64,000 nt of DNA from Candidatus Latescibacterota bacterium (GTDB lineage: Bacteria > Latescibacterota > UBA2968 > GCA-2709665): positions 192,001 through 256,000 of the forward strand of contig CBDCOX010000002.1 of the NCBI GenBank assembly GCA_965219995.1, given 5' to 3'. Of this stretch, positions 55,328 to 58,832 are shown one piece after another. The notes beneath the pieces were generated by a model. The model searched no databases, was not told where the DNA came from, and was given only the letters and a program-made list of their open reading frames with translations. Position numbers and translations under genes: made by a program. The stretch's first letter is position 1. Each line of letters begins with the position of its first letter.

Positions 55328-56521
55328 ATGAAATTACTGAAACAGTTGTGGGTTCGGCTCGTGTTGGTGGTCGGGGCTTCCGCGGCCGTGGCGGCCTGCG
55401 GAAAGACGCCACCCACCGTGGACGATGATTTATACGAAGAGTATCCAGGGTTGCCCTACGGGATCATGATCACCCTCGCCGGCACCGGAGATCCGGGCAG
55501 AAGTGCCGCGGGATCGGGTCCTCTTGATACGAACCTGTATTTCCCCCAGGACGTGGCCGTCGGACCCGGCGGCCGAACGTACATTCTGGACTGGAACAAC
55601 AATCGGGTTGTTGTGATCGACAACGGAATCGCCCGGCCGCTCATCGGTAACGGCGAGCCGGGCAAGGCGCTTGCAGGCCCCGCGCTGGAGACGGGGGTCG
55701 ATCACCCGACCCATATTTCTTTCGATCTCCAGGGGCGGCTGGTTCTGTCGGCGTGGCAGAATTCCACGATTCTGAGATACGACGCGACCTCGGGTCGCGT
55801 CGAACCGATTGCCGGGCGTGGAGACCGCGGGTTCGGGGGTGACGGCGGGCCCGCTCTCGAGGCTTCGCTGAACCTGCCGAGTTCCACGGTATTCGACCCG
55901 GCCGGTCGTATGTATATCTCGGACCAGGGCAACCTTCGCATAAGAATGGTGGATCTCAACGGTGTGATCTCCACCGTTGCGGGCACCGGACGGGAGGGGT
56001 TTTCCGGGGACGGCGGTCCGGCAGTCCTGGCCGACCTCTATGCGCCCACGGGAGACGCCGCGCAGCCGGGGGGCCGGATAGCGATGGATGGCCGGGGCAA
56101 CCTCTACATCGCCGATACGTTCAACAACCGCATCCGCATGGTGGACGCCACGGGCAGGATCAGTACGGTGGCCGGCGGCGGCAGCATCGGCCCCACAGCC
56201 GGAACGTATTCCGGAGACAGCGGCCCGGCGACTCAGGCCAGCCTTTCCCGCCCCAGCGACGTGGCCGTCGACGCGGAGGGAAATCTGTATATTGCCGATA
56301 CCGGCAACCACTGTATCCGGAAGGTGGATACGGAGGGGGTCATTACCACGCTTGCCGGGAGGTGCGGCGAGCCGGGTTTCAAGGGCGACAGCGACCATCC
56401 CCGGTGGGGCAAGCTCCGGAGTCCGTTCGGGGTCGCGCTCGATCAGGAAGAGAATCTGTACATCGCCGACACGTTCAACCATCGCATCCGCGTGGTGTAC
56501 AAGCACGTCGCCGAAAGATGA
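55328..56521 (+). CDS. NHL-repeat (teneurin-like) beta-propeller lipoprotein
   Basis: Lipobox VAAC; repeated GFSGDGGPA...L..P..VA.D..GNLYIADT.N.RIR units. Confidence 0.9.
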   Translation: MKLLKQLWVRLVLVVGASAAVAACGKTPPTVDDDLYEEYPGLPYGIMITLAGTGDPGRSAAGSGPLDTNLYFPQDVAVGPGGRTYILDWNNNRVVVIDNGIARPLIGNGEPGKALAGPALETGVDHPTHISFDLQGRLVLSAWQNSTILRYDATSGRVEPIAGRGDRGFGGDGGPALEASLNLPSSTVFDPAGRMYISDQGNLRIRMVDLNGVISTVAGTGREGFSGDGGPAVLADLYAPTGDAAQPGGRIAMDGRGNLYIADTFNNRIRMVDATGRISTVAGGGSIGPTAGTYSGDSGPATQASLSRPSDVAVDAEGNLYIADTGNHCIRKVDTEGVITTLAGRCGEPGFKGDSDHPRWGKLRSPFGVALDQEENLYIADTFNHRIRVVYKHVAER

Positions 56522-56586: not shown

Positions 56587-57087
56587 ATGGGTCGAATGCA
56601 ACGGCTCCGCATCACCGGTATCGTACTGACCGCGGGTCTGTTCATTTTTTCCGGTGATACCGCGGCCGCGGGGGATTTGCCCGACCCACTGCCCCGGGTG
56701 CAGGTCGTCACGCTCGAAGGAGATACGCTGAGTCTGACGGACGTCTGCAATGGGAAGACGTCCTTTGTCTATCTGTGGGCAACCTGGTGCAAGACATGCA
56801 AAAGGGAGTTGAAGCACGTCTACAGGTTGAGGAAGAAATACGGAGACAGGGTGCAGGTGTTCGGGATCGCGTGGAAGAACAGCGCGGAGGAAATACAGAC
56901 CTACTTCGCCGACAAGAAGGAATCGCTGCAAAGCTATATAGATTGGGATGGCCGGGTGTTCGATGCCTTCGAGACCCGATTGACGCCCACGGTTGTCATC
57001 GTAAACGCCCGGGGAGAGGTCCTTTTTTCGGGGTACGGTTCATTTCGAAAATACCGGAAGATTCTGGATAAGTCATTGAAGGGTTAG
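56587..57087 (+). CDS. TlpA-family thiol:disulfide oxidoreductase, exported
   Basis: Signal/anchor peptide, WATWCKTC, cis-Pro TPT. Confidence 0.9.
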   Translation: MGRMQRLRITGIVLTAGLFIFSGDTAAAGDLPDPLPRVQVVTLEGDTLSLTDVCNGKTSFVYLWATWCKTCKRELKHVYRLRKKYGDRVQVFGIAWKNSAEEIQTYFADKKESLQSYIDWDGRVFDAFETRLTPTVVIVNARGEVLFSGYGSFRKYRKILDKSLKG

Positions 57088-57101
57088 TCGCCGAAGGAGC
57101 C

Positions 57102-58082
57102 ATGACCATGAGACGCACGATACCTGGTTTCACGTTATTTCTGTTTGCGCATCTGGTTCTCGCAATCCAGCCCGTTCAGGCGCAGCCCGGCGTGAGCTGA
57201 CGCCGTCCCGTGCTCCCGGGCGGGAGAATGCTGCAGGGCAGTCTGATCACCAGGGACCTGCTGGTTCTGAGCGTGAATTACGAGTATGAGTACCTGGGCG
57301 ACGCAATGTACGGTACCGGGCCGATCCCCAACATCAACCAGGAAGTGACCAGCATGTCCACGGTATCCGTTTTTGCCAGTTACGGGGTCAAGGACTGGTT
57401 CGGCGCCGCCGTGGTTCTGCCGTTTCGTTCCATAACCAACGACAAAATCCTCCTTCCGGGTCAGTACGACAACCAGTATCAGGGCGGCAAGTACATACGG
57501 CATGCCGCGGGCCTCGGCGACGTCGTTCTGATGTTGAACTTTGCTCCTCCTCTGCCGGAATCATTGCCGGGCCTGCTCTTTTCTGCAGGCGTCAAACTCG
57601 CGAACGGGTCGACCCACGCGGTCGACGAATACGGCGAGCGCTTCGCCGACCTTCTGCAGGTGGGATCCGGAAGCATGGACCCCATTTTCTCCGTCAGTCT
57701 GTCGCGTGCATTCGACAGCCTGTTTTTCAACGGTATGCTGTTCACCCGCATCATTTCCCGCGAGAATGTTTACGGGTACAAATACGGGAACGAGTTTCAG
57801 GGCATCTTTTCGATGGATTATATGCACGGGGACAAGCTTGTTGCGGGTGTCAGCATGAATCACGTCTACACGTCGCGTGATTATTTCCAATATGGAAAGA
57901 TCGCCCGAAAACGCGGCGGGACATGGGTTTATCTCGCACCGAAGCTGGGCATACGGGCAACGGAGAGTCTGAGCCTCGAGGCCCGGCTGCCGCTACCGGT
58001 CTATCAGAAGGTGAACGAAAGCCAGTTGACGTCCGACTACCAGCTCCACGTGGGCGCCACGTATCACTTTTTCGCTCGTTAG
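57102..58082 (+). CDS. Outer-membrane beta-barrel 'transporter' family protein, candidate selenoprotein (UGA at codon 33)
   Basis: AAGGAG RBS, ATG 57102/57108, signal peptide ending VQA, then QPGVS-TGA(57198-57200)-RRPV in frame with ORF 57210-58082. Barrel motifs SYG, GLGD, GVKL, QVGSGSMD, GNE, PVYQ..N..QL and an aromatic C-terminus. Confidence 0.75.
57205..57239 (+). promoter_or_regulatory. SECIS-like hairpin
   Basis: CTCCC-GGGC-GGGAG (57213-57226), with the G-initial loop starting 18 nt after the TGA. Extended pairing CGT/ATG and GTCC/GGGC. Confidence 0.55.
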
Positions 58083-58097: not shown

Positions 58098-58832
58098 GTG
58101 GCACCCAGAGAAACCGAGAAGATGTGGGCCGCTCTGGCGCCGTTCTACGACGTGATGTATCAGTGGAAGGATTACCGGGCCGAGTCGGAGCAAGTTCATC
58201 GGCTGATCCAGGCAAGGCGCGTGTCATCCGGCCGCTCCCTGCTGGACGTCGCGTGCGGGACCGGAGAACACACCCGGTTCTTGCGGGAACACTATGATGT
58301 TACCGGGCTCGATTTGAACCGGGAAATGTTGAAGGTGGCGCGAAACAAGAACCCGGGTATCCCGTTGCGCTGCGGCGACATGACCTCCTTCGACCTGAAG
58401 CGCCGCTTCGACGCCGTCGTCTGCCTGTTCAGTTCGATCGCCTACGTACGGACGTACCGGAACCTGAGGCGGTCGATCGCATGCTTTGAAAAACACCTGA
58501 AACCGGGCGGCGTCCTTGTGATCGAGCCCTTCTTCACGACCGGGACGTTTCTTCCGGGTTCGATCCACGGCGGCACCATGGAAGGAGAGGGCGTCAGAAT
58601 CTCCAGGCACAGCGTGAGCAGACGCCGCGGAAACCTGGCCGTTCTCGATTTCCATTTTCTCCTGTCCACAAAAAAGGGCGTACGATATTTCCACGACACC
58701 CACGAACTGGCCCTCTTCGACCCGTCGCGGTTCCTTGAAATCCTTTCGGACGCCGGGCTCCGCGCCCGGTATTGCGAGGATGGATTGACGCCGGGTCGAG
58801 GGCTGTACGTGTCGTTGAAAGCACTCCCGTAA
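58098..58832 (+). CDS. Class I SAM-dependent methyltransferase (TylM1/DesVI-like)
   Basis: YD..Y..KDY, LLDVACGTG, GDM, CLFSSIAY, HLKPGG..VIEP. Confidence 0.88.
   Translation: MAPRETEKMWAALAPFYDVMYQWKDYRAESEQVHRLIQARRVSSGRSLLDVACGTGEHTRFLREHYDVTGLDLNREMLKVARNKNPGIPLRCGDMTSFDLKRRFDAVVCLFSSIAYVRTYRNLRRSIACFEKHLKPGGVLVIEPFFTTGTFLPGSIHGGTMEGEGVRISRHSVSRRRGNLAVLDFHFLLSTKKGVRYFHDTHELALFDPSRFLEILSDAGLRARYCEDGLTPGRGLYVSLKALP

Follow-up and report, generated by a model that had tools for sequence, protein, structure and literature searches.

An in-frame UGA conserved across bacterial phyla indicates a probable selenoprotein form of a small outer-membrane channel

Within a window of 64,000 nucleotides (nt) from a Candidatus Latescibacterota bacterium (assembly GCA_965219995.1, contig CBDCOX010000002.1, positions 192,001 to 256,000), a gene for an outer-membrane beta-barrel carries a UGA codon close to its 5' end. 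The window is the whole stretch of DNA analyzed, and its own numbering is used throughout. Taken as a whole, positions 57102 to 58082 are likely to be one gene for an outer-membrane selenoprotein, which is the best explanation of the data, and selenocysteine (Sec) is very likely to be inserted at this UGA, codon 33. This reading follows from the conservation of the TGA, from coding-type sequence on both of its sides, from a covarying hairpin that resembles those of selD and an FdhA-like gene in the same genome, and from a complete set of selA, selB, selC, and selD. The gene very probably belongs to a conserved family of Sec-bearing outer-membrane channels that gene callers and recent inventories have missed. 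Features of the gene and its surroundings are collected in Table 1.

Table 1. Positions of the barrel gene, its signals, and its neighbors in the window
Feature	Position	Strand	Remarks
Full selenoprotein gene	57102-58082	+	326 codons including UGA-33; stop TAG at 58080-58082; product is an outer-membrane 12-stranded barrel, as modeled
Shine-Dalgarno-like GAAGGAG	57093-57099	+	2 nt ahead of the ATG; in the 14 nt that follow the redoxin stop (57085-57087); direct reading
Predicted signal peptide	57102-57182	+	MTMRRTIPGFTLFLFAHLVLAIQPVQA; putative cleavage site
In-frame UGA, candidate Sec codon	57198-57200	+	Residue 33, about the 6th of the mature protein; motif GVS-U-RRPVLPGG
Table-11 open reading frame, shortened form	57210-58082	+	GTG start, 290 amino acids; form reported by gene callers; without signal peptide
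Hairpin like a selenocysteine insertion sequence	57213-57226	+	Stem CTCCC (57213-57217) and GGGAG (57222-57226); loop GGGC (57218-57221); 17 nt between UGA and loop
TlpA/ResA-like periplasmic thiol:disulfide oxidoreductase	56587-57087	+	WCKTC motif; Pfam Redoxin 2.6e-12, AhpC-TSA 1.3e-11
NHL-repeat beta-propeller, probable lipoprotein	55328-56521	+	First gene of the cluster; Pfam NHL 5.1e-28; inner ATG at 55328; putative lipobox ...VAAC/GK in the translation
Class I S-adenosylmethionine (SAM)-dependent methyltransferase	58098-58832	+	Pfam Methyltransf_25 1.2e-17; 15 nt downstream of the barrel stop

The original prediction, which was made from the DNA alone, had pointed out that the annotated open reading frame (ORF) begins at a GTG and has no signal peptide, and that a ribosome-binding site, an ATG, and a TGA lie upstream in the same frame; all of these were found where it had placed them. 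The frame from ATG to TAG is open but for the single TGA, and tblastn matches in relatives begin at residues 1 to 5 and end at residues 323 to 326, thus spanning the TGA. In each of the 41 related genome loci described below, a basic and then hydrophobic N terminus ending in Ala-Gln lies in frame ahead of the TGA, and the region of the predicted signal peptide forms a helix (residues 8 to 20) in an AlphaFold2 (AF2) model. When TGA is translated as U, the 326-residue read-through protein contains no cysteine, as had also been claimed.

Conservation of the TGA was followed in a census of homologous sequences with at least 36% identity and readable DNA, made up of genome loci, metagenome loci, and the paralogue in the same genome (64 sequences). 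A DNA scan of one genome per species supplied 53 loci, 41 of which were 36 to 95% identical to the barrel protein. TGA occupied one common column in all 64 aligned sequences. It stood at the identical column in 41 of 41 genome loci, within the motif AQ(G/P)G(V/I)S-TGA-RRPxLPGG, and was kept in 21 of 21 metagenome loci (a 22nd locus lacked the N terminus) and in the paralogue, so that homologues retained the TGA rather than the Trp, Arg, or Gly that the original prediction had named as the alternative. The labels carried by the loci represent several phyla of the FCB group; for the 41 genome loci they are Latescibacterota, Gemmatimonadota, candidate division KSB1, Calditrichaceae, Marinimicrobia/Neomarinimicrobiota, and Fidelibacterota. 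Two copies are encoded in most Latescibacterota genomes, one in an orthologue group at 83 to 95% identity and the other in a paralogue group at about 51%. The paralogue in the genome of the window (L066, G000:C2:802232-803185, minus strand) is 52% identical to the barrel protein, has a single TGA, and has the hairpin CUUCC-GGGC-GGAAG.

The pattern of substitution around the TGA is that of a coding sequence. Over 90 nt around the TGA, column entropies at the first, second, and third codon positions were 0.63, 0.52, and 1.39 bits upstream and 0.96, 0.55, and 1.48 bits downstream. The third position was therefore the most variable on both sides, which argues that one frame is translated across the TGA. 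A search with the read-through protein returned 45 relatives, nearly all of them 276 to 289 amino acids long and beginning just past the TGA column, and they therefore look like shortened gene calls. Past the TGA, no start codon is conserved across the loci; at several the first one lies 70 to 110 codons in, and the starts at L044 (3430) and L037 (3307) illustrate how far inside it can be.

Two explanations that would deprive the TGA of any special role are excluded by these data together with the stop codons and read contigs described here. The first, that the barrel gene is an ordinary one with a nonsense mutation (a pseudogene) or with an error introduced by assembly or sequencing, would fit with gene callers stopping at the TGA, with the shortened forms found in databases, and with a Ser sense codon at the column in two close homologues. 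It is hardly conceivable given that all 64 homologous sequences, which come from many genomes and metagenomes, have this codon at this column, that conservation is of the coding type on both sides, and that the TGA is seen at a depth of 54 in the likely source run as well as in contigs from two further studies. The TGA was unaltered in contigs of runs X1 (depth 54, the probable source run), X5, and X8, and in X8 all 29 differences are listed, none of them within 57198-57200; a sequencing error, raised as a concern by the original prediction, is thus answered by independent runs. Runs holding this stretch include sponge, coral, and marine metagenomes. Reading of TGA as an ordinary sense codon, in the style of genetic codes 4 or 25, could draw on two database proteins with W at the column (P0058 and P0193), presumably products of code-4 gene calls, but it too has next to no probability. 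Nine of the 41 related genes terminate in TGA at the aligned C terminus (L021, L025, L038 to L040, L043, L044, L047, and the short L036), so TGA still ends translation in these organisms; the SelD and FdhA-like matches each contain a single internal TGA, located at the Sec position, and SelA contains none; and the genome of the window is high in G+C with ordinary long ORFs.

Bacterial selenocysteine insertion sequence (SECIS) elements lie just 3' of the recoded UGA and have a G opening the apical loop. The predicted hairpin CTCCC-GGGC-GGGAG is present in the barrel gene, with the first G of the loop 18 nt past the A of the TGA. Its conservation was evaluated in an alignment of 64 sequences, 53 of them distinct, in which the five stem pairs were formed in 99.6% of 265 cells. 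The fifth pair joins the wobble base of a Leu codon (CUN) with the wobble base of a Gly codon (GGN), and the bases at these positions were CG in 36 sequences, UA in 9, AU in 4, UG in 3, and GC in 1, with none unpaired. None of 500 shuffles matched the covariation score, slid controls were 28 to 79% paired, and the switches between pair types fall in several separate branches of the tree. All aligned sequences have G at loop position 2, and the barrel-gene loop, which starts 17 nt past the UGA, is GGGC, or GGUC in one lineage, making it a G-G-N-C type loop whose spacing from the UGA does not change. The stem is thus kept and covaries across relatives, as the original prediction had proposed should be looked for. 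Taken alone the hairpin is no better than chance, while the conservation of the TGA and the covariation exceed chance.

Two other genes of the same genome offer internal comparisons. In selD (motif CGUAAK), a 7-bp stem carries the loop GGUC 17 nt past the UGA, and in the FdhA-like gene (CSRAUHAP), a 7-bp stem carries the loop GGUCU 18 nt past the UGA. In all three genes, C-G pairs close an apical loop of the form GG(U/G)C that begins 17 to 18 nt past the UGA, but the barrel stem is 5 bp compared to 7 bp in the other two, with a sixth pair in some barrel sequences only. Extension of the barrel stem to 8 bp was tried and rejected: among 39 distinct sequences, the 29-46 pair does not form in 25 and the 30-45 pair does not form in 18. 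The 5.4-Mb genome was also scanned with a crude pattern (a TGA with open frames on either side, a spacing of 16 to 18 nt, and a stem of 5 bp or more with a GG loop), which gave 50 hits that were mostly noise, among which only the barrel gene, its paralogue, and selD were credible. The hits at C2:3460904, 3121142, and 3402328 resemble noise upstream of true starts or out-of-frame ORFs.

The genome encodes the complete Sec machinery, as the proposal of a selenoprotein presupposed. SelA (473.8 bits) has no internal stop, SelB was recognized by its wing domain (71.4 bits) in a 647-residue frame, and selC is present as tRNA-SeC(tca). The selA, selB, and tRNA-Sec genes are clustered on the minus strand (G000:C2:1802578-1805869; L001/L060). 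SelD (359.9 bits; L061, G000:C2:2652952) has its own in-frame TGA at the Sec position. The FdhA-like molybdopterin oxidoreductase gene at G000:C2:899794 also has one in-frame TGA and scores 143.9 bits, below the TIGR01553 cut-off. In both SelD and the FdhA-like match, the one TGA is the sole internal stop and lies at a known Sec position. SelA was detected in four of five tested genomes with a TGA-form barrel and in none of five Flavobacteriia genomes with a related barrel that carries a Cys-Cys motif.

Modeling shows the product to be a 12-stranded barrel of the COG4313/FapF type. The AF2 model, built from an alignment of 53 sequences, had a mean predicted local distance difference test (pLDDT) score of 90.1 and a predicted template modeling (pTM) score of 0.83. 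The closest structure was Pput2725 of Pseudomonas putida F1 (PDB 4rl8, COG4313), with a Z score of 26.4 and a root mean square deviation of 2.2 Å over 255 residues, model residues 39 to 323 being placed on chain residues 1 to 268. Both are monomer-sized 12-stranded barrels with a short segment ahead of strand 1, but sequence identity is only about 10%, the segment is about 25 residues long in the barrel protein compared to 14 in Pput2725 and carries the candidate Sec, and the gene context is a redoxin and a propeller lipoprotein rather than aromatic catabolism. In Pput2725, the 14 residues before strand 1 fold into the lumen, which they enter from the periplasm and almost block, and relatives have segments of double that length (PMC4493636); that paper makes no use of the word "cysteine." In the barrel protein, Sec precedes by six residues the point at which the model begins to superpose on 4rl8 (chain residue 1), and the N-terminal segment of the model has a beta-bridge at residues 32 and 33 and a helix at residues 43 to 46, with pLDDT values of 72 to 75.

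By sequence profile the best match was FapF, the amyloid secretion channel of Pseudomonas (PDB 5o65), which ranked second by structure (Z score, 23.9; Foldseek E value, 4.4e-11); the profile built from the homologue alignment gave E values of 3.3e-7 for FapF and 0.0068 for 4rl8. FapF likewise has a 12-stranded barrel and a plug ahead of strand 1. However, the match starts at FapF chain residue 98, and the approximately 25 mature residues that precede the barrel in our protein are too few to make up a long N-terminal domain. The scanned loci showed no fap-type neighbors; in the window, the genes around the barrel encode an NHL propeller, a redoxin, and a methyltransferase. A Pfam search with the barrel protein gave no family at an E value of 0.01 or below, and hence no match to PF13557 (Phenol_MetA_deg); precomputed PF13557 hits exist for 8 of the 45 homologues, several of which are about 50% identical.

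More distant homologues were sampled as 30 full-length representatives of 150 listed, picked for length and N-terminal coverage. In agreement with the earlier statement that barrels of this type carry Cys motifs just after the signal peptide, 28 of the 30 did so, with CC in 24, CxC in 3, and CxxxxC in 1; the remaining 2 had none. The Cys-Cys dyad sits in a Gly/Ser-rich context and coincides with the Sec column in some comparisons only, namely when U is written as C and by ungapped distance to the first strand. In a quick midpoint-rooted tree, 20 Sec rows and 2 Ser rows formed one clade (Shimodaira-Hasegawa-like approximate likelihood ratio test [SH-aLRT] support, 93), with the Ser rows nested beside KSB1 forms; this nesting inside the Sec clade suggests that the Ser forms arose by secondary loss of Sec. 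A metagenome scan returned no locus for the two Ser-form proteins. Still more distant COG4313-like barrels have neither Sec nor Cys.

In the window, an NHL propeller, a TlpA/ResA-like redoxin, the barrel, and a methyltransferase follow one another, with gaps of 14 to 15 nt flanking the barrel, and the redoxin directly upstream is probably cotranscribed with it. The closest NCBIfam models for the redoxin are ResA and TlpA, all of them under cut-off. By tblastn, four flanking proteins, including a glutamate-synthase-like gene further downstream, were found at 14 of 14 orthologous loci. The redoxin lies directly upstream at these 14 loci and at 10 others labeled KSB1, Calditrichaceae, Marinimicrobia/Fidelibacterota, or unclassified, and the methyltransferase lies downstream at all 14 and not at the other locus types. 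Outside the orthologue group, a propeller lipoprotein is the next gene downstream at 16 of 16 sampled TGA loci and also beside the window genome's own paralogue. The downstream lipobox proteins of these non-orthologous TGA loci are 350 to 420 amino acids long and related to one another, and 16 of 23 scanned neighbor proteins match the 7-bladed Lactonase propeller family. At five of five Flavobacteriia loci (L048 to L052; for example, L049:2980-5057), the gene directly after the Cys-Cys barrel encodes a DUF3179 lipoprotein that has a CPLT motif. DUF3179 appears as a selenoprotein family with the motif UxxC/T in a 2026 review (PMC13188914). The genome of the window has three DUF3179 genes, none with internal stops.

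Several observations weigh against the selenoprotein interpretation. The evidence for selenium in the protein is at the level of sequence. Fold energy of the 71 nt around the hairpin was ordinary (z = 0.76), with 160 of 200 shuffles folding equally well or better, and the sole match in a permissive Rfam scan of 57000 to 57400 was to CRISPR-DR19 on the opposite strand, at the level of chance (E value, 8.2). The barrel-gene stem is short, and four of its five pairs are invariant and fall in codon positions fixed by the peptide LPGG(S/R). Because homologues lacking both Sec and Cys keep part of this peptide (MPVGS in P0075 and MPGGW in P0069), those four pairs are not independent evidence, and independent RNA-structure evidence comes from one pair only. 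No close homologue has Cys at the Sec column, and two full-length homologues without the TGA (P0012 and P0023) have Ser. When U is masked as X, the Cys-Cys dyad of the distant homologues aligns at -3/-2, 2 to 3 residues upstream of Sec, with Ser at -1 and Pro at +3 matching, so the classical comparison of Sec with Cys in a single column does not give a clean answer. Of the alignment that the original prediction called for, the conserved TGA was borne out, but Cys at that column was not cleanly so: close homologues without the TGA have Ser, and the column of the distant dyad depends on the alignment. SelA was not found in one TGA-form genome, a metagenome-assembled genome (MAG) of 1.6 Mb, and tblastn did not find the redoxin beside the paralogue group. 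In the AF2 model, pLDDT is only 72 for residues 31 to 40, around Sec, and the position of Sec at the tip of a plug inserted into the lumen is inferred by analogy with Pput2725.

A further explanation is one in which the UGA is recoded by a near-cognate tRNA to Trp, Cys, or Arg, perhaps stimulated by the hairpin, or in which a 32-residue peptide is made and the barrel is translated separately from a downstream start. Support for selenium that comes from sequence and not from the protein, the short stem, the lack of Cys in close homologues, and a 32-residue ORF that has been called in databases (P0180) would all be compatible with it. Outer-membrane barrels need a signal peptide for export through the Sec translocon and the BAM complex, and a barrel started downstream, having none, could not reach the outer membrane; moreover, no start codon after the TGA is conserved, the first being 70 to 110 codons in at several loci. 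Recoding to another amino acid also fits poorly with a hairpin whose loop type and spacing are those of the selD and FdhA-like SECIS elements in the same genome, and with the finding that the TGA form goes with SelA while the Cys-Cys form occurs without it. We consider this explanation improbable, and insertion of Sec at the UGA remains the preferred reading.

If Sec is inserted, SelB and Sec-tRNA would bind the hairpin while the ribosome stands on the UGA, as in established bacterial Sec decoding. The protein would then be exported through the Sec translocon, lose its signal peptide, and fold as a 12-stranded COG4313/FapF-type barrel. By analogy with Pput2725, the approximately 25 residues before strand 1, with Sec near their tip, may fold from the periplasmic side into the lumen, where a lone selenol would take the place of the Cys-Cys dyad of distant homologues. 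Such a selenol on a mobile plug could capture or reduce a soft electrophile in the channel, which might be an oxidant, a metal(loid), or a species of sulfur or selenium. The TlpA-like CxxC reductase of the periplasm, encoded by the adjacent gene, could restore the selenol, and the beta-propeller lipoprotein, whose gene accompanies every copy of the barrel, could be a substrate-binding or catalytic partner. The modeled fold and the neighbors are consistent with the redox- or metal-binding plug residue of the original prediction. The redox-plug mechanism in this specific wording is tentative, and we hold it to be doubtful rather than likely.

The C-terminal Cys-Cys of mercuric reductase and the Gly-Cys-Sec-Gly of mammalian thioredoxin reductase are redox- or metal-binding tails. 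What they have in common with the proposed plug is a flexible end of the chain that bears a reactive selenol or pair of chalcogens and moves between a buried site and a partner. Those tails, however, are C-terminal and belong to soluble flavoenzymes, whereas the barrel protein would carry its selenol at the N-terminal tip and has no flavin domain, and the likeness is a lead only.

With Sec inserted, its role might instead be not redox catalysis but the binding and hand-over of a metal(loid) or chalcogen (for example, Hg, Cu, As, Se, or polysulfide) by an arm that swings at the N terminus, much as vicinal Cys-Cys or Cys-Sec pairs act in other proteins. Such a role would suit the Gly/Ser-rich Cys-Cys dyad in 24 of 30 distant representatives, the SAM methyltransferase kept downstream at all 14 orthologous loci, and the pairing of the Cys-Cys form at five of five Flavobacteriia loci with DUF3179, itself a listed selenoprotein family. 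According to the 2026 review, many predicted Sec sites are metal ligands, and Sec-containing transport proteins are tied to metal or metalloid resistance (PMC13188914). Against this, no metal-resistance gene, metal-sensing regulator, or metal chaperone was found in the scanned loci, a dedicated TlpA-like reductase suits a redox cycle better, and Ser replaces Sec in two homologues. We therefore regard a binding and hand-over role as possible but unlikely. Another possibility, which we also think unlikely as formulated, is that these apparently passive channels are enzymes as well: a plug selenol would reduce or detoxify an oxidant, or carry a sulfur, selenium, or metal(loid) adduct, and would swing to the periplasm for regeneration by the TlpA-like protein, the propeller would handle substrate, and the Cys-Cys/DUF3179 forms of Bacteroidota would be the sulfur version.

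The barrel protein is very probably a Sec-bearing form of a known channel fold and represents a selenoprotein family absent from the inventories checked. NCBIfam release 20 gave no match at an E value of 0.01 or below for the barrel protein, the paralogue types, two TGA-form relatives, or a Cys-Cys relative. None of the 119 prokaryotic selenoprotein families tabulated in the 2026 review is of the COG4313, PF13557, or FapF type (PMC13188914), and literature searches found no description of a Sec barrel family, the BSepDB list and groundwater-MAG candidate lists being outside this comparison. Two other outer-membrane beta-barrels are listed there as predicted selenoproteins (PMC13188914, Table 1), so Sec in the outer membrane has precedent. 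Both have other folds and sizes, and their NCBIfam models give no match to the barrel protein; the listed FCYXU type has a CxxU motif, compared to the lone Sec in a Cys-free mature protein described here. The original prediction of an undescribed family thus holds with respect to Pfam, NCBIfam, and the 119-family table, while for outer-membrane selenoproteins as such these two precedents exist.

Annotation has distorted the family in consistent ways. Database members are mostly 276 to 289 amino acids long and without signal peptide, two have W at the site (P0058 and P0193), and one signal peptide is held as a separate 32-residue ORF (P0180). Because annotation cuts every member, the family goes unseen in Latescibacterota, KSB1, Calditrichota, and the Marinimicrobia/Fidelibacterota group, as a selenoprotein and as an exported protein alike. 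A lone candidate Sec on the plug of a COG4313/FapF-type barrel, encoded beside a periplasmic reductase, provides a testable hint of thiol or selenol chemistry in small outer-membrane channels, and the much larger family of Cys-Cys barrels gains a first functional handle.

A scan for promoters and terminators between 54800 and 59100 found sites no more commonly than in shuffled sequence. The organism is known solely from MAGs. Run X19, an RNA library with three contigs of a relative on the gene, includes one contig that covers 57000 to 57230, and thus the redoxin-barrel junction and the TGA. It was not counted as evidence of transcription because six differences are unlisted, DNA is possible in such libraries, and only 30 letters extend past the TGA.

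Other observations concern the wider set of loci. In six Gemmatimonadota-labeled MAGs (L009, L012, L014, L022, L026, and L032), the orthologues are 88 to 89% identical to Latescibacterota-labeled ones and have the same gene order; for one of these two sets of MAGs, the phylum labels may be inconsistent. The paralogue of the window genome is followed by a lactonase-like propeller lipoprotein gene, and a type I phosphodiesterase gene also flanks it. Among the many generic Pfam hits of the methyltransferase downstream of the barrel is a weak TehB-like one (19 bits). Very distant COG4313-like barrels without Cys or Sec (L097, L099, L100, L106, and similar; N terminus ADPIQGVSARTQFF) read ...QGVS-A-R..., which is like GVS-U-RR and may be chance or a remnant of a common plug motif. 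At KSB1/Marinimicrobia-type loci (L025:277-2109, L038:651-2417, and L041:618-2387), a gene for an FG-GAP/ASPIC-UnbV protein with a type-9-secretion sorting tail adjoins the redoxin-barrel-propeller set, and in L025 it lies on the same strand.

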